Positions 1-9,082 of a stretch of DNA of 64,000 bases are shown in pieces; the stretch's first letter is position 1; every line of letters starts with the position of its first letter. The translations under genes were made by a program, and so were the position numbers. Below the pieces are notes generated by a model, which worked only from the letters and a program-made list of their open reading frames with translations, did no database searches and was not told the origin of the DNA. Source of the DNA: Patescibacteria group bacterium (GTDB taxonomy: Bacteria; Patescibacteriota; Minisyncoccia; Phycocordibacterales; EsbW-18); NCBI GenBank assembly GCA_038064475.1, contig JBBTTA010000001.1, positions 187,795 through 251,794 on the forward strand, in the 5' to 3' direction.

Positions 1-1786
1 TTGTACGAACAAACTTCTTATCGTCGGTGGGAGGGTTTTTTACTTCAATATCTCCCTTCTCCGCAAACGAGTAGAGATAGAGTTCGCTGTAACCGTTCTC
101 AACCAAACAATCACGCACTTTATTCACGTAATAGAATGTTTTGTTTATCTCCGATGAAACCGAATTAGGAAGTGTTGCGGCAGGGATATTGTTGTAACCG
201 TACACACGACCAATTTCTTCGATGAGATCTTCAGTGACACGCACATCAATACGCTCAGATGGCACCGTTACAACAAAACGTTCTTCAGATGAAAGTAAGA
301 AGCGTTTGTACCCAACGATCGTCTTAAACGCAGGGCTTTCATCAAGACGCTCAACCACCACTTCCCCTTTGTGCCACAGACCTGATGCATGAATAATCTC
401 TCCATCTCCCAAGTAGATACCGCAGTGGCTCACCCCTCCTAAAACTACTGTTCCTGGCATCCATTCGCGCGAGACCTCTTGTATTGTCTTCTGTTCTACC
501 TCAACCCCGTCCGCTACTCGAGTAAACTTTGCGCTGTTTGATGCTTCTCTGCGTGAAAAAACAACATCTCCCGCTTGAAGATTTTCTTTTGAAACATCAG
601 CACCAAACACAAATTGGTCCACCGTCATGCGTGGAGTTGGTAAACCAACCTGCGCAAACAGAAAACTAACAAATGATGAACAATCAAAAGCATGCGGAGA
701 GTCAAGAAGCACACTTGCGCCGTATTTATACTTTGCACCAGCTAAACTCTTTGCTTTTTCAAGAAGTGTTGGAATTGGATCAACAACATCATGAGAAAAC
801 TGTAATCGTTTAAAAATATCTGCAATGTCTTTCTTTGTTATTGAAATACCGAGTGTTTTCTCAACTTCTTTTACAGAAACACCGAGCATGTAAGGATTTC
901 TTTTTTGGGGATAGAGATCGAACGTATCTGTCGCAATATGCCCGCTTGCATGTTGTGCGAACAGTTCAGATGCACGCTCAACGGCGCGTTCCACGAGTTC
1001 AGGTGTAATACCTTGCTCAAAACGCTTTGAGGCATCGGTGAGTAAACCAAGCGAGCGAGATGTTTTTCGCACAGACACAGGATTGAAGTTACATGCCGAG
1101 AGCACAATATGTTTTGTATTCTCATCGATGCCAGAATCTGCGCCGCCCTTCACGCCCGCAATATCAAGTGGTCCATTTTCGTCCGCAATCACTAACATGT
1201 TTTCTTTGAGCGTGTATGTTTTTCCATCGAGCGTTGTTACACTCTCTCCTTCTTTTGCGCCGCGTATCGTTATTGTTTTTGTATCTTTACCACCTGAAAT
1301 CTTGTCAAAATCAAATGTATGCACTGGCTGTCCTGTTTCAAGCATGACGTAGTTTGTAATGTCGACAATGTTGTTTATTGAGCGCTGACCTAATTTTTCA
1401 AGACGACCTTTAATAAGCTCTGGTGTTTTTCCAACAGAAACGTCCTTGATCAGCCGCACAGTTCCTCGCGGAACGAGTGTTGAATTCTCAACAGAAAACG
1501 TAATATGTTCTTGTGTGTTCACTTTCGCATCAGTTTTGTACGAGACAGGTGGTATACGAAATGTGAGTTCAAAAAGAGTTGCCACTTCACGTGCGATTCC
1601 GTGGTGTGACAAACAATCGTGTGCACGGTTTGGCAACACATCAACATCAATGATTGCATCTCCATCGGAAAGTACTTCAACGCCGTCGACTTCAAACGCA
1701 TGCATCGTCAATTTCTCCGCAATGTCGTTTGCAGACGGTAGTTTTTCTTCTATGAAATCTTGTAGCCACGAATGTAATACGTGCAT
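1..1786 (-). CDS. pheT: Phenylalanine--tRNA ligase beta subunit PheT. The 5' end is complete with ATG at 1786. The 3' end runs off the window.
   Basis: Hand translation of the minus strand from 1786 gives MHVLHSWLQDFIEEKLPSANDIAEKLTMHAFEVDGVE, which matches the E. coli PheT N-terminus. The B3/B4 region shows DITNYVMLETGQPVHTFD and the B5 end shows EEIGRVYGYNNIP. It sits directly downstream of pheS in the usual pheST order. The ORF track missed it because it has no stop codon inside the window. Confidence 0.85.
   Translation of the reverse strand, partial: MHVLHSWLQDFIEEKLPSANDIAEKLTMHAFEVDGVEVLSDGDAIIDVDVLPNRAHDCLSHHGIAREVATLFELTFRIPPVSYKTDAKVNTQEHITFSVENSTLVPRGTVRLIKDVSVGKTPELIKGRLEKLGQRSINNIVDITNYVMLETGQPVHTFDFDKISGGKDTKTITIRGAKEGESVTTLDGKTYTLKENMLVIADENGPLDIAGVKGGADSGIDENTKHIVLSACNFNPVSVRKTSRSLGLLTDASKRFEQGITPELVERAVERASELFAQHASGHIATDTFDLYPQKRNPYMLGVSVKEVEKTLGISITKKDIADIFKRLQFSHDVVDPIPTLLEKAKSLAGAKYKYGASVLLDSPHAFDCSSFVSFLFAQVGLPTPRMTVDQFVFGADVSKENLQAGDVVFSRREASNSAKFTRVADGVEVEQKTIQEVSREWMPGTVVLGGVSHCGIYLGDGEIIHASGLWHKGEVVVERLDESPAFKTIVGYKRFLLSSEERFVVTVPSERIDVRVTEDLIEEIGRVYGYNNIPAATLPNSVSSEINKTFYYVNKVRDCLVENGYSELYLYSFAEKGDIEVKNPPTDDKKFVRT
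380..760 (-). other. NlpC/P60-like papain-fold domain of about 125 aa, inserted in frame within the PheT B5 region.
   Basis: The inserted peptide reads AKYKYGASVLLDSPHAFDCSSFVSFLFAQVGLPTPRMTVDQFVFGADVSKENLQAGDVVFSRREASNSAKFTRVADGVEVEQKTIQEVSREWMPGTVVLGGVSHCGIYLGDGEIIHASG. It carries the Cys motif DCSSFV and the His motif HCGIYLGDGEIIHAS typical of NlpC/P60. It lies between the conserved B5 segments ...FKRLQF.. and ..SERIDVRVTEDLIEEIGRVYGYNNIP. E. coli PheT has only about 10 aa at this position. Confidence 0.55.
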
Positions 1787-1789
1787 AAT

Positions 1790-2527
1790 CTAGAACTGGT
1801 TTATAAGACGAACGTCACCTGACAGAAACATGCGAATGTCGGGCACGCCATACTTCACCATTGCCAATCGCTCGATGCCGACACCAAATGCAAAACCTTT
1901 ATACTTTCGCGGATCAATACCAACATTCGAAAGCACTTTTGGATGCACCGTACCTGCGCCCATAAGTTCAATCCAGCCTGTACCTTTGCAGACACCACAG
2001 GATTCATTTTTCCCTCCACACAAGAAACACTTTGCATCTACTTCAATTGTAGGTTCAACGAATGGAAAAAATCCTGGACGCATACGAATTGTTGCAGAGC
2101 TTCCAAAAAATTCTGACAACGCTTTCTCAAGTGTTCCTTTCAGTTGTGCGAGCGTAACATCTGTATCAACGACAAGACCTTCCATTTGATGAAAGACTGC
2201 TTCGTGCCGAGCATCTGTTGCTTCGCTACGGAATGTGCGCCCCGGCACGAGAATTCTGATTGGTGGCTCATGATTTTCCATGTAGCGAATCTGTACGTTC
2301 GATGTCTGTGTGCGCAAAACTGTTTTGTCTTTATCCTTGATCCAAAACGTGTCCTGCATGTCGCGCGCAGGGTGATCTTGCGGCACGTTGAGTGCATCGA
2401 AGTTGTGATATTCGTCGTCGATTTCAGGACCCTCAGCAATAGAAAAACCCATCTTTCTCATGATGCGTTCGAAATCGCGCTGAACAATCGTGAGCGGATG
2501 GTAGTGGCCTTTGTGTTCTGCCTCCAT
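1790..2527 (-). CDS. pheS: Phenylalanine--tRNA ligase alpha subunit PheS. This is a short 245-aa form that lacks the N-terminal coiled-coil region.
   Basis: Class II aaRS motifs are present: FRSEATDARHEAVFHQMEG and GFAFGVGIERLAMVKYGVPDIRMF. An in-frame stop lies 2 codons upstream of the ATG, so the short length is real. The stop at 1790-1792 abuts the pheT ATG at 1786. Confidence 0.9.
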   Translation of the reverse strand: MEAEHKGHYHPLTIVQRDFERIMRKMGFSIAEGPEIDDEYHNFDALNVPQDHPARDMQDTFWIKDKDKTVLRTQTSNVQIRYMENHEPPIRILVPGRTFRSEATDARHEAVFHQMEGLVVDTDVTLAQLKGTLEKALSEFFGSSATIRMRPGFFPFVEPTIEVDAKCFLCGGKNESCGVCKGTGWIELMGAGTVHPKVLSNVGIDPRKYKGFAFGVGIERLAMVKYGVPDIRMFLSGDVRLINQF

Positions 2528-2639: not shown

Positions 2640-3074
2640 ATGTCTGTCTCTGGAGAATCACGAAGGATACACGAGAGTCGCCGCAAGCTTCCCGATACGC
2701 GGGAAAGCATCACGCACAAGTTCAAGATCGAGAACCACAAGGGGTACATCACTGTCGGTCTCTACGAGGATGGAATGCCTGGTGAGATTTTCATCGTGAT
2801 GGCGAAGGAGGGGTCCACGATTTCAGGACTCTTGGATGCGTTCGCGACTGCGGTTTCAATCGCGCTCCAGTACGGCGCGCCGCTCACCGTGCTCGCTGAC
2901 AAGTTCGTCTATTCTCGGTACGAGCCATCGGGGTATACAAAGAATCCCGACATCCCGCTCGCCCAGTCCATCGGCGACTACATTTTTCGATGGCTCATCA
3001 TTAAGTTCGGAACCGAAGAAGAGAAGGAAAATCTTCTCCCTACTCCGAAGACACTCACCGGTGAAAGCCTTTGA
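2640..3074 (+). CDS. Standalone TSCPD-domain protein, similar to the class II ribonucleotide reductase C-terminal domain. The Cys motif is absent.
   Basis: KGYITVGLYEDGMPGEIFIVMAKEGSTISGLLDAFATAVSIALQYGAPL resembles the C-terminal domain of B12-dependent RNR and TSCPD standalone proteins. The T-S-C-P-D Cys residues are replaced here (..DIPLAQSIGDYI..). A G-rich RBS, taagggggggatATG, precedes the start. Confidence 0.55.
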   Translation: MSVSGESRRIHESRRKLPDTRESITHKFKIENHKGYITVGLYEDGMPGEIFIVMAKEGSTISGLLDAFATAVSIALQYGAPLTVLADKFVYSRYEPSGYTKNPDIPLAQSIGDYIFRWLIIKFGTEEEKENLLPTPKTLTGESL

Positions 3075-3387: not shown

Positions 3388-3463
3388 TGGAGCCGCCTCC
3401 CAGATTCGAACTGGGGACCTTCACTTTACAAAAGTGTTGCTCTACCAACTGAGCTAAGGCGGC
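3388..3463 (-). tRNA. tRNA-Thr with anticodon UGU, 76 nt, with an encoded CCA end.
   Basis: Reverse complement is GCCGCCTTAGCTCAGTTGGTAGAGCAACACTTTTGTAAAGTGAAGGTCCCCAGTTCGAATCTGGGAGGCGGCTCCA. It folds into a cloverleaf with a 7-bp acceptor stem, D-arm GCTC/GAGC, anticodon loop TTTGTAA, T-arm CCCAG/CTGGG and the TTCGAAT loop. Confidence 0.85.
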
Positions 3464-5340: not shown

Positions 5341-6381
5341 TTAGGCTGCGTCCTCAGGGGTCATATCACCCGTGTATGCCGCCAAGCTGTCGATAATGCT
5401 AGGGTTTAGAAGAGTTTCTTTGAGCTTCTCGGTATTTCCACGACGTAAAAGTCCAAGGTATGACTGTGTCGTTCTAAAAGAAAACTCCTTTTCAAGTCGT
5501 CTCGACATCCTCCTTTTTGTCGTTGTCCTCAATACTCGGTGGTCAGGAAAATGTACCCATCCTAAGAAATCGACACCAGACGCAAGTGTTTTAATAAACA
5601 CTTTGTCAGGATGAGGTGCGAGTTTGAGTCGCTCTTCAAGAAAATCAGCAATTCTTGGAATCAACTCAGTAAGATAGTCTTTGTCATGAGATAGGACGAC
5701 AAAATCATCAGCGTACCGAATATAGTATTTTGCTTTGACTATGTGTTTCATCCACTGGTCGAATTCATTCATATAGATATTCACGAAAAGTTGTGAGGTG
5801 AGATTGCCTAGCGGCAGACCGACGCCGAGTCGCCCCACATAAAAACTTCCAGTAATCTCTTTGAGAAGCCCGAGTAACTCTCTGTCAAAAATATGTTTCT
5901 CTAGTATCTGTATCAGAATTTGGTGATCGACAGAAGCAAAGAACTTCCTGATGTCACACTTAAGAATCCAACATGTCCGAGTGTTATTTTTGCTCACTCT
6001 GTATCCAAATTGTTTGAATCGTTCAATTGCTTTATGTGTCCCCTTATTGAGACGACATGAATAGGAGTCCGCTATAAAACGTTTGTCGAAATAAAGATAC
6101 AGCTTTCTATAAATAGCATGGTGGAGAAGACGATCTTGGACAGTCGCCTTATGTATATTTCTTGGCTTTGGATCCGAAATGTTAAAAGCATCATAGCCTC
6201 CGTGACAATAGGTTCGTTGAGCAAGGTCGTGGTGGAGTTTCAATATGTTATCCATGAGTTTCCATTGAAAATCTTGCACGTCATTTTTTGACCGCTTCCC
6301 TTTTAAGAATTCGCGCCATGCGCCGAGAAGATTTTCGACGGAAATGATATCCTTGTAGTTATGAATGAAATTAAAAACCAT
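5341..6381 (-). CDS. DGR reverse transcriptase, Brt-like.
   Basis: The motifs are SVENLLGAWREF (cf. Brt TWENLLDAYRK), CRLNKGTHKAIERF (cf. YACRPDKGTHAGV), LKCDIRKFFASVDH, GLPLGNLTSQLFVNIY (the DGR-specific [I/L]GxxxSQ motif), RYADDFVV (the YxDD catalytic box) and GVDFLGWV. The last 15 aa derive from the duplicated prfA segment. Confidence 0.9.
   Translation of the reverse strand: MVFNFIHNYKDIISVENLLGAWREFLKGKRSKNDVQDFQWKLMDNILKLHHDLAQRTYCHGGYDAFNISDPKPRNIHKATVQDRLLHHAIYRKLYLYFDKRFIADSYSCRLNKGTHKAIERFKQFGYRVSKNNTRTCWILKCDIRKFFASVDHQILIQILEKHIFDRELLGLLKEITGSFYVGRLGVGLPLGNLTSQLFVNIYMNEFDQWMKHIVKAKYYIRYADDFVVLSHDKDYLTELIPRIADFLEERLKLAPHPDKVFIKTLASGVDFLGWVHFPDHRVLRTTTKRRMSRRLEKEFSFRTTQSYLGLLRRGNTEKLKETLLNPSIIDSLAAYTGDMTPEDAA
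5355..5399. repeat. Left direct repeat of the DGR insertion. It is a copy of the prfA 3' coding end that is read in frame as the RT C-terminus.
   Basis: CAGGGGTCATATCACCCGTGTATGCCGCCAAGCTGTCGATAATGC versus 8122-8166 differs at 1 position. It encodes IIDSLAAYTGDMTP in both ORFs. Confidence 0.8.
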
Positions 6382-6390
6382 ATAATAAAG

Positions 6391-6399
6391 CCCCCCCCC
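6391..6399. repeat. Homopolymeric C9 tract (G9 on the minus strand) in the 31-nt spacer between the divergent RT and avd start codons.
   Basis: Read directly. On the minus strand it forms the GAGGGGGGGGGC Shine-Dalgarno-like element 11 nt upstream of the RT ATG. Confidence 0.6.
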
Positions 6400-6412
6400 T
6401 CGATTAGTTTCA

Positions 6413-6757
6413 GTGGTTTTAAAGTTAAAAGATTGTTACGGAGTTTGGCAGCAGTACCTTCCCCACTTCCCGAAATCTCATCGTTTTACGTTAGGAAGCA
6501 AAATTGACGCTGTTTTTCTTGATGCTATCGAATCCTGTTTTTTTGCAAGCTATTCTTCCGGCCAGAAAAAAATAGATCTCGTTGATCAATCGATATCGAA
6601 GACAGATCTCACGAAGCTCCTACTCCAACTTGCTTGGGAAGTTCAGGCTCTGGATAACAATAAGTACGCGCACTTGAGCGAACTCTTAGGAGAGATTGGA
6701 AAGATGCTCGGAGGATGGAAACGACAACTCCTCAATAAAACTCCCGCCTCAAAGTAA
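6413..6757 (+). CDS. avd: Avd-like accessory variability determinant, a four-helix-bundle protein related to the 23S rRNA intervening-sequence protein family.
   Basis: Family signatures are YGVWQQY..FPKSHRFTLGSKIDAVFLDAIESCFFA...LSELLGEIGKMLGGWKRQLL, compared with LKVWQKA..FPKEERYGLTSQLRRAA..IAEG...EEIGKMLNGLIKSL. The gene is divergent from the RT and ends 22 nt before the TR. Confidence 0.7.
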   Translation: MVLKLKDCYGVWQQYLPHFPKSHRFTLGSKIDAVFLDAIESCFFASYSSGQKKIDLVDQSISKTDLTKLLLQLAWEVQALDNNKYAHLSELLGEIGKMLGGWKRQLLNKTPASK

Positions 6758-6778
6758 AGCGGGAGAACCGATGAAAGT

Positions 6779-6908
6779 GGCGAACGGCCAGGAACCGACA
6801 GGTGTCGTTCCAGTCGTCGTCCCGCCAGTTGAGGTTGAGGTTCCGCTTCGCGTCGTTCCTATTGAGGTACGGGACGTTGCGGTTGCCATTGACCAATCCG
6901 ACGGAGCC
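6779..6908 (-). repeat. DGR template repeat (TR). The sense strand is the minus strand, where the adenine-containing codons sit.
   Basis: The 130-nt segment is homologous to 7284-7416. On the minus strand the TR codons are AAC x7, AAT x2, GAC, AAG, AGG and ACC. The encoded peptide is GSVGLVNGNRNVPYLNRNDAKRNLNLNWRDDDWNDTCRFLAVR. Confidence 0.85.
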
Positions 6909-7151
6909 ATGTACGACGTGCCATCAGTACCACCACCCCTTGAACCACGTATCAATCGTAACAAAGTTTTTGGAGTTGTATCGTATTCGCGATCTTAAAA
7001 TATCGCAGAGCACATCGCACCAACTTTCTCTGGTTTTTATTCAGGACTCGGAAACACTCTTTCGACAGCCGTGACCGTCAAAACTCTCGCTCCCGAGCGT
7101 GCGAACAAACTATCTAAAGCCGTGACCGTAGATTTTTCGTCTGTTAGTTAC

Positions 7152-7159
7152 ATTATACA
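7152..7159 (-). promoter_or_regulatory. Extended -10 element (TGTATAAT) positioned to start the TR transcript just upstream of the TR.
   Basis: The reverse complement of 7152-7159 is TGTATAAT. It lies immediately after the hairpin terminator of the target gene. No clear -35 box is present. Confidence 0.35.
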
Positions 7160-7169
7160 AAAACGAAAG

Positions 7170-7199
7170 CCCGGCGCCACCTTGGTAGGTTGCGCCGGG
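7170..7199 (-). terminator. Hairpin (CCCGGCGC.ACC..GGTGGCGCCGGG) followed by CTTTCGTTTTTG on the minus strand. It is a candidate terminator for the DGR target gene.
   Basis: The stem is about 12 bp with 1 mismatch. It sits about 60 nt after the target stop, and a partial U-run follows. Confidence 0.4.
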
Positions 7200-7260
7200 A
7201 AGGTCCAAGACCAGAGTGCTCTACGCCTGAAGGCGTTGCAAAGGGTCAAAAACCAGAGAA

Positions 7261-7923
7261 CTACTTGCCTGCCTGCGCAGGCAGGCGAACGGCCAGGAAC
7301 CGACAGGCGACGCCCCAGCCGACGCCGTCCCGCCAGCGGAGGCCGAGGCTCCGCCCCGCGTCGTGCCCATGGAGGTACGGGACGCGGCGGTCGCCACCGA
7401 CCAAGCCGACGGAGCCGAGCGCGATCACCGGGAACTGTCGCTGAACCTCGGGGAAGCTTGCCCCGAAGGCGAGCAACTCTGCGATGGTCGCAGCGCGGTA
7501 TCCCGCCTTGTCGAGCTCACGCTCGACTTCGTCGGTGGTGGTGTTGCGGTTGAAGTGGAAGAGCTTCCCGTCCACCATGACCGTACCACCACCCGTGATC
7601 GGAAACCGCGCAGCGGTGATCTCGTTGTTCCGCCAGTCATACTTACCGGCGGCGATCATCTCCTCGAGCGACTTCCCGAAATCGATGGTGAAACGGCAGA
7701 TGCCCGTCGCGAGGTCGATCGCCGGAGCGAGGGGCGCGACGAGAGCGTTCACGAGGGCGTCGATGACGCGCTCCATGTCCGTCTTGCCTTTGTCGGTGAC
7801 GAGCGCATGAATGCGCTCGTTGTCCCAGCCGCGGGACAGAAGCCCTTTCACGAGTCCGAGTGCGAGCTGCATGAGCCAGCCTGCCCCGGAAATGATCGCT
7901 ACGGGAGTGTTCTTGCTTGCCAT
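7261..7923 (-). CDS. DGR target (variable) protein of 220 aa. The VR encodes residues about 171-214. GC content is high, about 60%.
   Basis: The ORF has an AAGGAG RBS and a consensus promoter. The C-terminal 44 aa (SVGLVGGDRRVPYLHGHDAGRSLGLRWRDGVGWGVACRFLAVRL) are encoded by the VR. The N-terminal about 170 aa belong to no family I recognise. Confidence 0.8.
   Translation of the reverse strand: MASKNTPVAIISGAGWLMQLALGLVKGLLSRGWDNERIHALVTDKGKTDMERVIDALVNALVAPLAPAIDLATGICRFTIDFGKSLEEMIAAGKYDWRNNEITAARFPITGGGTVMVDGKLFHFNRNTTTDEVERELDKAGYRAATIAELLAFGASFPEVQRQFPVIALGSVGLVGGDRRVPYLHGHDAGRSLGLRWRDGVGWGVACRFLAVRLPAQAGK
7267..7286 (-). promoter_or_regulatory. Perfect GC-rich palindrome (GCCTGCCTGCGCAGGCAGGC) immediately 3' of the VR and overlapping the target stop codon.
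   Basis: The 20-nt perfect inverted repeat was read directly. Its position matches the DNA hairpin/cruciform required for homing downstream of Bordetella phage VR1. Confidence 0.65.
7284..7416 (-). repeat. DGR variable repeat (VR) at the 3' end of the target gene.
   Basis: The VR differs from the TR at about 25 positions, all at TR adenines (A to G, C or T on the minus strand). One 3-nt in-frame indel is present. The 3'-terminal about 23 nt are identical to the TR and look IMH-like. Confidence 0.85.
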
Positions 7924-7989
7924 CGTCGTACTCCTTTTTCTGACGTGCTCCCCACCCTCACCACAATGGTTCGGGCCTCGAGCTTGTCT

Positions 7990-8040
7990 GTTGGTTACAG
8001 CTTTTAAGGCACTACAGATGCTCTAAAAGCTGTAACCAAC
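7990..8040 (-). promoter_or_regulatory. 17-bp stem hairpin in the 5' UTR of the DGR target gene.
   Basis: GTTGGTTACAGCTTTTA ...15 nt loop... TAAAAGCTGTAACCAAC. The two arms are perfect complements. Confidence 0.5.
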
Positions 8041-8071
8041 GAGTAGTTCTCTCAATGTTCTTCTGCTGACC

Positions 8072-8100
8072 ATTATACACCTATTATGAGTGTATGTCAA
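8072..8100 (-). promoter_or_regulatory. Consensus sigma70 promoter (TTGACA, 17 nt spacer, TATAAT) driving the DGR target gene.
   Basis: The minus strand reads ctaTTGACAtacactcataataggtgTATAATggt. It sits 12 nt beyond the prfA stop. Confidence 0.6.
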
Positions 8101-8107
8101 TAGTCTG

Positions 8108-9082
8108 TTATTCTTGATCCACAGGTGTCATATCACCCGTGTATGCCGCCAAGCTGTCGATAATGCGGTCCATATTGCCTCCCAAGATGCCTGGAAGGTT
8201 TGACCAGCTCTCTTTGATGCGGTGGTCGGTAATGCGATCCTGTGGGAAGTTGTACGTGCGAATTTTTTCAGAACGGTCCCCTGTTCCAATCTGGGCCTTT
8301 CGCTCACTTGAGAGCTTTTTGGCATCTTCTTCAACTTTGAGCACATCAAGCTTTGCCTGAAGAATTTCAAAGGCTTTCTCACGGTTTCTCTGCTGGCTTC
8401 GCTCTGATTGTGATTTCACAATAATCCCCGTTGGTGTGTGTACAAGACGAACAGCTGTTTCCACTTTGTTTACGTTCTGTCCTCCCGCACCACCTGAACG
8501 CGTAAATGTCATTTCAACATCTGCCATATTAATCGGAACCATTCCTTTTGCGCGCATAGGAAGGATTGCAACTGATGCAGTTGATGTATGTACACGTCCC
8601 ATCTTTTCTGTAGCGGGAATTCGCTGTACACGATGAATACCTGTTTCAAATTGGAGTTCCTTGTACACGTCTTTTCCTTTTATTTCAAATGAGGCGTCTT
8701 TGTAGCCACCCATCGTTGCACGCGCTTCATCGACAACTGACGATGACCACCCTTTCCTCTCGGCGTACTTTCGATACATGTTTGCAAGTTCTTCAGCAAA
8801 AAGTGCCGCCTCTTCTCCGCCAGCGCCTGCACGCACTTCAAGAATAATTTCATTTGGAAATTCATCCTCTTCTTTTTCACTCTCAAGAATGCCTTTGATC
8901 TGTCCTTCGATAAAAGCATATTGCTCATCAATGCGAAGAATGTCTTCCTTTGCGAGATCTGCGAGTAGAGGATCATCCCCCGCTGCCGCTTCAGCTTCGG
9001 CACGCTCCTTTTGCAGACGCTCTAATTCAAGCGCTAAGTAGGCAGTTGTATGATTTTTTTTGAGTTCGTCGAGATCCATCAC
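8108..9082 (-). CDS. prfA: Peptide chain release factor 1.
   Basis: The GGQ motif (RSGGAGGQNVNKVETAVRL), the RF1-type PAT tripeptide (RIPATEKMGRVHTS) and the RTYNFPQDRITDHRI C-terminal region are all present. Confidence 0.9.
   Translation of the reverse strand: MMDLDELKKNHTTAYLALELERLQKERAEAEAAAGDDPLLADLAKEDILRIDEQYAFIEGQIKGILESEKEEDEFPNEIILEVRAGAGGEEAALFAEELANMYRKYAERKGWSSSVVDEARATMGGYKDASFEIKGKDVYKELQFETGIHRVQRIPATEKMGRVHTSTASVAILPMRAKGMVPINMADVEMTFTRSGGAGGQNVNKVETAVRLVHTPTGIIVKSQSERSQQRNREKAFEILQAKLDVLKVEEDAKKLSSERKAQIGTGDRSEKIRTYNFPQDRITDHRIKESWSNLPGILGGNMDRIIDSLAAYTGDMTPVDQE
8122..8166. repeat. Right direct repeat. This is the authentic prfA 3' coding end.
   Basis: It matches 5355-5399 at 44 of 45 nt. 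Confidence 0.8.

Follow-up and report, generated by a model that had tools for sequence, protein, structure and literature searches.

Why should the beta subunit of phenylalanyl-tRNA synthetase (PheRS), an essential enzyme, carry a peptidase domain of the cell wall type inside one of its own domains? The question is raised by the pheT gene at the left edge of a 64,000-nucleotide stretch of contig JBBTTA010000001.1 from a groundwater Patescibacteria group bacterium with a small genome; this whole stretch is called the window below. A preliminary description, made from the sequence alone, had claimed that an NlpC/P60-like domain is inserted in frame into the PheT B5 domain, separating its two halves, and it offered three options for this insertion: a catalytically active module, a degenerate binding module, or an intein-like selfish element that had lost splicing. 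We find that the domain is present at the same site in a large group of Parcubacteria/Paceibacteria and that its active-site residues are conserved. Our reading of the whole, to which we give slightly better than an even chance, is that a cytoplasmic gamma-D-glutamyl-type cysteine amidase was captured once into the housekeeping PheRS.

The nested domain and its PheT host

On the minus strand, an ATG at window position 1786 opens a frame of 595 amino acids (aa) that is in register with PheT and reaches the window edge with no stop and no frameshift. Separate assemblies, of Hainich groundwater among other samples, contain 11 contigs that encode a full-length identical protein, P0053 (800 aa, 100% identity), and its recurrence on independent contigs excludes a frameshift or a chimeric assembly. 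P0053 scores 449.9 bits against the TIGR00472 pheT_bact equivalog (cut-off 402.65); by profile match, the host protein is a true PheT. The insert-bearing pheT directly follows pheS and is apparently the housekeeping copy of the gene. The features of this region, all on the minus strand, are listed below in window coordinates; conservation counts here and in the following sections refer to the 120 closest PheT homologues (44-68% identity).

1..1786: pheT (PheRS beta subunit), first 595 codons, in an open frame; the gene runs on beyond the left window edge
947..1471: B3/B4 editing domain, aa 106-280 (Pfam B3_4, E=1.6e-62)
782..901: B5 N-terminal half, aa ~296-335, two helices and the first hairpin strand (first Pfam B5 stretch and AlphaFold secondary structure)
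287..781: nested NlpC/P60 domain (MEROPS C40, P60-type), aa 336-500 (Pfam NLPC_P60, PF00877; AlphaFold; Foldseek)
680..682: codon of the predicted catalytic Cys369, in FDCSSF (Cys in 120/120)
446..547: variable beta-hairpin extension within NlpC/P60, aa 414-447, after the GD.vF strand and before the catalytic His (alignment and AlphaFold)
425..427: codon of the predicted catalytic His454 (His in 120/120)
389..391: codon of His466, third in the triad (His in 111/120; the remainder F5, Y2, Q1, D1)
182..286: B5 C-terminal half, aa 501-535, second hairpin strand and helix with the R.D....DliEEigRvyGY motif (Pfam B5 aa 499-531, positions 35-67 of the hidden Markov model)
2..169: first part of the catalytic-like module (B6/B7), truncated at the window edge (weak tRNA_synthFbeta match, aa 540-590)
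1790..2527: pheS (PheRS alpha subunit), maximal open reading frame (ORF) of 245 aa (TIGR00468, 288.7 bits; cut-off 237.45)

Between the two B5 stretches, Pfam places NLPC_P60 with E=2.1e-15 and 57.0 bits (gathering cut-off 23), and the excised insert alone matches the same family with E=5.6e-17 and 62.1 bits. The NCBIfam models for NlpC/P60 proteins (RipC, MepS, p60, and RipB) gave partial matches of 1e-8 to 1e-13, all under their full-length cut-offs. When aligned with Staphylococcus haemolyticus PheT, query residue 331 corresponds to residue 443 and query residue 502 to residue 449, so that ~170 residues replace ~5. The insert itself comprises ~165 aa (145-174 across the family), more than the 125-150 aa first estimated. 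The insertion point is the tip of the B5 beta-hairpin ("wing"), between Pfam B5 positions 34 and 35, where ...SHDVV is joined to DPIP... at the entry and ...SSEE to RFVV... at the exit; R512 and D514 in the C-terminal half of B5 are invariant in the homologues. Both motifs quoted in the preliminary description are present, the Cys motif DCSSFVSFLF at aa 368-377 (window 685..656) and the His motif HCGIYLGDGEIIHAS at aa 454-468 (window 427..383).

A full-length AlphaFold model built with a 120-sequence alignment reached a mean predicted local distance difference test (pLDDT) score of 94.3 and a predicted template modeling score (pTM) of 0.76, with the NlpC/P60 region at pLDDT ~90-97. In this model, B5 runs through strand 300-303, helices 305-312 and 318-328, and strand 331-335 and resumes at strand 503-507; NlpC/P60 extends from helix 337-347 to strand 490-495, and the linkers between the two domains are short and confidently modeled. 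The domain modeled alone (pLDDT 89.8) was compared with the PDB using Foldseek, which returned 64 matches at E<=1e-3, the best 50 of them all NlpC/P60-type. The closest was Clostridioides difficile Acd24020 (7cfl_A; template modeling [TM] score 0.91, root mean square deviation 1.9 A), followed by MepS, LytE, CwlO, YkfC, RipB, and SagA. The only poorly modeled and poorly conserved part is the extension at aa 414-447, where the family alignment has ~50% gaps, pairwise identity is 33%, and pLDDT values are 67-84. The claimed in-frame insertion of an NlpC/P60 fold is thus upheld, and we regard both the insertion and the fold as near certain.

Judged by profile, by the Cys-His-polar order, by the papain-like fold, and by the S1 signature described below, which are all the criteria testable here, the domain belongs to the P60-like NlpC/P60 family. 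With the P60-type DL-endopeptidases (C. difficile Acd24020 [7CFL], Escherichia coli MepS/Spr, Bacillus subtilis LytE and CwlO) it shares the fold, the Cys-His-His order, and the conserved Tyr, Asp, Ser, and Arg around the nucleophile. It differs from them in reading PYKYGAS and FDCSSF where the canonical P60 motifs are PY.WGG and DCSG, and in having the extra variable hairpin before the catalytic His. Furthermore, those enzymes are secreted or lipid anchored and act on the cell wall, whereas we found no signal peptide, lipobox, or wall-binding module (SH3b, LysM, or PG_binding) with the PheT insert, which is internal to a cytoplasmic synthetase.

The remainder of the host resembles the bacterial enzymes of Thermus thermophilus (1PYS/2IY5), E. 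coli (3PCO), and S. haemolyticus (2RHQ), with collinear B1, B3/B4, B5, and catalytic-like modules, a C-terminal FDX-ACB anticodon-binding domain, a pheS-pheT operon, and conserved editing-site residues. Full-length family members combine PF00877 with B3_4, B5, the catalytic-like module, and FDX-ACB in Pfam searches, and tRNA_synthFbeta, weak in the partial protein, is matched in full by P0053. The differences from the three reference enzymes are ~165 aa in place of ~5-10 residues, the loss of B2, and a partner PheS without its coiled-coil arm. Collinearity through B1, B3/B4, and B5, as originally proposed, stands, with the qualification that the absence of B2 had gone unmentioned: Pfam finds no B2 (tRNA_bind, PF01588, OB-fold) in PheT, and query residue ~36 aligns to residue ~152 of the S. 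haemolyticus protein. B2 is missing from both the insert-bearing and the insert-less PheT families of Parcubacteria, the exception being P0164 (insert bearing, 882 aa), which retains it. PheS, encoded immediately upstream in the same operon, matches positions 67-322 only of the TIGR00468 profile and lacks the N-terminal coiled-coil tRNA-binding arm.

It is conceivable that the domain is mainly a structural or tRNA-docking element that compensates for the lost PheS coiled coil and B2, its catalysis being incidental. Indeed, a short PheS (~98 N-terminal residues missing) accompanies the insert in 11-12 of 14 insert-bearing loci versus 0 of 8 insert-less Patescibacteria loci; the junctions appear rigid in the AlphaFold model; and two insert-bearing lineages (L112 and L122) retain a long PheS, from which it follows that the insertion preceded loss of the arm. 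However, PheS may have been truncated just once, within one subclade, and replacement of B2 had to be rejected because B2 is also missing from the insert-less sister family. Other properties of the domain fit poorly as well: it is acidic (mean net charge -4.8), its triad and S1 pocket are strongly conserved, and its free-standing homologues, described below, cannot be parts of PheRS. We consider a primarily structural role quite unlikely.

We also asked about the B3/B4 editing site. H156, N145, and G214 (E. coli H265, N254, and G318) are invariant, and T250 (E. coli T354) is present in 119/120; replacement of a decayed editing site by the insert was rejected because these residues are conserved. 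The position of E. coli Glu334, an editing-site residue implicated in recognizing tyrosine, is occupied at aa 230 by Ser in the window PheT, and family-wide by Ser in 85/120 and Glu in 35/120.

Distribution, conservation, and origin of the insert

PF00877 is found at the same site in all 120 of the best PheT homologues, which belong to Parcubacteria/Paceibacteria; named carriers include Yonathbacteria, Zambryskibacteria, Campbellbacteria, and Pacebacteria/Paceibacterota, and one record is labeled Saccharibacteria (L001). In the sister PheT family (Jorgensenbacteria, Wolfebacteria, and others), whose members are likewise B2-less and ~640-715 aa long, the insert is present in 0/120. A HMMER search with only the insert as query covered 1.84 billion cluster representatives in full; 47 matches had E<=1e-30 and 371 had E<=1e-10, and among the best 150 representatives (50% identity clusters) 116 were PheT, 93 of them full length. 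The pattern HxGIYLGDGK, by comparison, is common to ordinary NlpC/P60 proteins, and among the matches listed only 3 of 80 loci were PheT. Some insert-bearing PheT proteins are named "C40 family peptidase" or "beta subunit-related protein" in the databases; owing to the insert, annotation pipelines misname some of these essential genes. As a molecular marker, the insert also sets a Paceibacteria subclade cleanly apart.

In YkfC, the residues that hold gamma-D-Glu in the NlpC/P60 S1 site are Tyr226, Asp237, Ser239, Arg255, and a small residue at 257 (Xu et al., PMC2954226). Their equivalents in the insert, mapped by motif register and not by structural superposition, are Y353 (120/120), D368 (116/120), S370 (107/120), R386 (117/120), and Ser, Thr, or Ala at 388 (114/120). 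Mean pairwise identity is 0.477 for the insert and 0.481 for the rest of PheT, and distances between inserts correlate with those between the host proteins (Pearson 0.39, Mantel p<=0.001). Conservation of the triad and the S1 residues, an identity equal to that of the host, and correlated distances together indicate that the domain is held under purifying selection, most simply as an enzyme. Among the options first offered, these data favor a catalytically competent module and speak against a degenerate binding module.

The alternative that the insert is a tolerated passenger, whether selfish, neutral, or a decaying endolysin-like or mobile domain with no present function, draws on three observations: B5 is peripheral, and the tip of its hairpin tolerates insertions; the inner extension (aa 414-447) varies among sequences; and the third triad residue is lost in 9/120. 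Yet the insert is as conserved as its host across sequences just 44-68% identical, its catalytic dyad is invariant, there is a single insertion site with all inserts in one clade, and the Pfam search detected no Hint or endonuclease domain. The variant in which the insert is an assembly or frameshift artifact conflicts, in addition, with the identical protein on 11 independent contigs. We hold this alternative to be very improbable; as we read the alignments, the conservation data contradict decay, a selfish element, and an artifact alike. Like inteins and other selfish insertions, the domain lies in frame within a conserved domain of an essential protein; unlike them, it has no Hint or endonuclease domain and no splice-junction residues, and it represents a single ancient, vertically inherited insertion with a conserved active site. 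That no intein motifs are visible, as reported initially, agrees with the absence of any Hint or LAGLIDADG match in Pfam at E<=1, and with one insertion site and a monophyletic insert the intein-like option can be rejected.

Where did the domain come from? A search with the insert alone mostly returns small (137-178 aa) NlpC/P60 proteins of Patescibacteria. These free-standing relatives have the motifs PYKYGA, FDCSSF, and LPRS..LQA in common with the inserts, and their inner extension is shorter. In 29 of 30 of them the domain starts ~10-20 residues from Met1, which leaves no space for a signal peptide; more distant NlpC/P60 homologues are ordinary secreted proteins with leaders. In a neighbor-joining tree (83 sequences, 134 columns, 200 bootstraps), the PheT inserts formed one clade with 99% bootstrap support and were sister to the leaderless free-standing family with only 58%, the secreted enzymes falling outside this grouping. 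The best reading of these data is an ancient domain-in-domain insertion, acquired once and probably inherited vertically since then. By the same comparisons, the insert would derive from, or have a common ancestor with, the small leaderless NlpC/P60 family.

Gene linkage and possible function

The free-standing gene is found 0.3-4.7 kb from an insert-less pheS-pheT operon in 8 distinct loci, as follows.

L084/L085, L089, L091, L092, L093 (= L174), L096, L097, and L106: free-standing NlpC/P60 gene near insert-less pheST

These loci span at least three subclades of the free-standing family, and their PheT proteins are only ~46-52% identical to one another. No second NlpC/P60 gene was found in the flanks of the insert-bearing loci or elsewhere in the 64-kb window. 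A secreted NlpC/P60 gene near pheST in L162 was treated as a coincidence, since it encodes a canonical enzyme with a signal peptide and belongs to a distant organism.

Clustering of neighboring genes revealed a second peptidase family, Peptidase_C39_2, with leaderless products of 155-206 aa that score 34-56 bits in Pfam (cut-off 24). The His is invariant, and the Cys is absent only from one gene call, which is truncated at its N terminus. The nearest solved relative, by profile search against PDB sequences, is 3erv, an uncharacterized C39-like peptidase from structural genomics. C39_2 abuts the free-standing NlpC/P60 gene in 5 distinct insert-less loci (L089, L091, L092, L093/L174, and L096) and, among 10 distinct insert-bearing loci, directly follows pheT in 7 (L001, L002, L113, L119/L126, L123, L177, and L178), with a gap of 3 bases in L178. 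Example genes are as follows.

L178:10458-10997: C39_2
L177:11081-11548: C39_2
L089:8419-8985: C39_2

There is no C39_2 gene at the post-pheT position in L003, in L120, or in the genome of the window, where a 176-aa ORF lies on the other strand between pheT and gyrB; this ORF was considered and rejected as not homologous to C39_2. At other loci, 1-15 bases separate the free-standing gene from the gene that precedes it, which encodes IMP dehydrogenase in L087 and a HIT-family hydrolase in L090.

Retention of the Cys-His-His triad and the S1 pocket leads us to infer that the insert is an active cytoplasmic gamma-D-glutamyl amidase. In the model that we favor, a P60-type amidase was inserted once into the B5 hairpin of the PheRS beta subunit and has been passed on vertically in a large Parcubacteria/Paceibacteria group. 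It would hydrolyze gamma-D-glutamyl amide bonds in substrates akin to peptidoglycan stem peptides, with PheRS serving as a constitutively expressed carrier or scaffold, so that the tie to the synthetase would be one of scaffolding rather than chemistry. The NlpC/P60 domain, often with its C39_2 companion, might then degrade imported or recycled murein-type peptides, and in organisms presumably unable to make many amino acids such breakdown would serve salvage.

Cytoplasmic NlpC/P60 enzymes that recycle murein peptides exist: YkfC/DPP VI and the YkfC of Chlamydia trachomatis act inside the cell on peptidoglycan-derived peptides (PMC2954226, PMC9928106), a role that the insert would share, and the latter offers a precedent in a reduced-genome bacterium (PMC9928106). 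YkfC/DPP VI has the same gamma-D-Glu S1 residues as the insert; it differs in having an SH3b cap and Asp256, and none of these enzymes is fused to a synthetase. In YkfC-type enzymes, SH3b caps the site with an active-site Tyr, and Asp256 binds the free L-Ala amine (PMC2954226).

Several observations weigh against the amidase-salvage model. The position equivalent to YkfC Asp256 (387) is Met, Ile, or Val in 107/120 (M57, I28, V22), and no SH3b domain was found by Pfam in insert-bearing PheT; because Asp256 and the SH3b cap protect UDP-MurNAc-peptide precursors from the cytoplasmic YkfC, an open-site gamma-D-Glu amidase with neither would present a safety problem. The S1 assignment by motif register and the 58% support for the sister relationship to the leaderless family count on the same side. 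The linkage of the free-standing genes to pheST is lineage restricted: one subclade has no pheST in the available flanks (L107, L108, L109; P0043, P0040), and sampling from the PheT side found the cassette at 1 of 3 insert-less loci, in the same organism as the already counted L093. The lack of a C39_2 gene behind pheT in the window's own genome belongs here too, as does the finding that in the loci examined no genes for peptidoglycan or peptide transport lie nearby, the neighbors being the translation genes gatCA, rpsB, tsf, prfA, and infB. Finally, salvage gives no reason why PheRS should be the host.

A rival reading is that the domain, or its free-standing relatives in trans, acts on a substrate related to PheRS. 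The NlpC/P60 superfamily includes acyltransferases that use a thioester intermediate; as in LRAT-type members, the thiol could attack an aminoacyl or peptidyl ester, so that the domain would provide a further site for editing or deacylation or would act as an aminoacyl-transferase on the Phe of Phe-tRNA or Phe-AMP. Fusion within PheT in one clade and a position beside pheST in the sister clade form the Rosetta-stone pattern of functional linkage; gatC-gatA, encoding another aminoacyl-tRNA enzyme (the aminoacyl-tRNA amidotransferase), is a recurrent close neighbor of the free-standing gene (L081, L089, L091-L094, and L097); the short, high-confidence B5 junctions suggest, in the predicted structure, a fixed pose on the enzyme; and the Ser at the E. 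coli E334 position in 85/120 points in the same direction. On the other hand, the S1 residues by which true peptidoglycan peptidases bind gamma-D-Glu are fully retained, which would be unexpected for a new substrate, and the remaining B3/B4 editing site is invariant and needs no replacement. The nearest structures among the PDB matches listed are all peptidoglycan DL-endopeptidases, the domain carries a negative charge, and the partner C39_2 family is listed in the literature among phage endolysin domains, which points to peptide substrates. Taken together, we regard a tRNA-linked substrate as unlikely. A more specific version, in which PheRS, NlpC/P60, and C39_2 form a functional unit in Parcubacteria and a papain-like thiol enzyme acts on the ester of aminoacyl- or peptidyl-tRNA or on Phe-AMP, as a new proofreading site or a tRNA-dependent aminoacyl-transferase, is a long shot. 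If true, aminoacyl-tRNA chemistry would have gained its first catalytic module with a papain fold, and tRNA-linked substrates in general would define a new class of synthetase accessory activity.

Synthetase editing domains (CP1 of LeuRS, IleRS, and ValRS, INS of ProRS, and B3/B4 of PheRS) offer another comparison, being hydrolases that lie inside a synthetase polypeptide and are conserved within clades. The insert differs from them in fold and in its papain-like thiol chemistry: it has the NlpC/P60 fold and none of the known editing folds (B3/B4, CP1, INS/YbaK, AlaX, or DTD), and the normal PheRS editing domain is still there. Catalytic domains that have nothing to do with editing are seldom gained by bacterial aminoacyl-tRNA synthetases; in the present case, an essential enzyme of this class appears to have carried an intact cell-wall-type cysteine amidase over the long term, in a large clade of uncultivated, reduced-genome, and probably symbiotic bacteria. 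In the literature searched, we found no description of a PheT-NlpC/P60 fusion. Membership in the NlpC/P60 family and the PheT host are neither of them new, and the sequences were already in databases; what is new is a nested catalytic domain in a bacterial synthetase, together with the three-way linkage of PheRS, leaderless NlpC/P60, and C39_2. Fused in one lineage, neighboring in its sister, and with a second peptidase alongside, these genes point to a previously unnoticed leaderless NlpC/P60 and C39_2 pair linked to PheRS. Should the recycling of murein peptides prove true, the domain would give a handle on how auxotrophic bacteria obtain or reuse cell wall amino acids.

Other features of the window

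Upstream of pheS and divergent from it, the window encodes a 144-aa stand-alone TSCPD-domain protein (2640-3074, plus strand), and a tRNA-Thr gene (TGT; 3388-3463, minus strand) adjoins this gene. Farther along, a diversity-generating retroelement occupies window positions 5341-8166, between prfA and rpsB, with the following parts.

6381..5341, minus strand: reverse transcriptase of the retroelement
6413..6757, plus strand: Avd-like ORF of the retroelement
6779-6908: template repeat
7284-7416: variable repeat, in the C terminus of a 220-aa ORF (7923..7261, minus strand)

The template and variable repeats are 82-85% identical, and all mismatches fall at template T residues of the plus strand, which are A residues on the minus strand. 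A 49-nucleotide direct repeat, 96% identical, flanks the cassette at window positions 5351-5399 and 8118-8166; it represents the prfA 3' end, of which a duplicate lies at the 3' end of the reverse transcriptase ORF. Related genomes L177 and L178 have the gene order L31-RF1-S2-EF-Ts without the cassette. Given the flanking repeat and the cassette-free order in these relatives, the retroelement looks like a recent insertion with target duplication.

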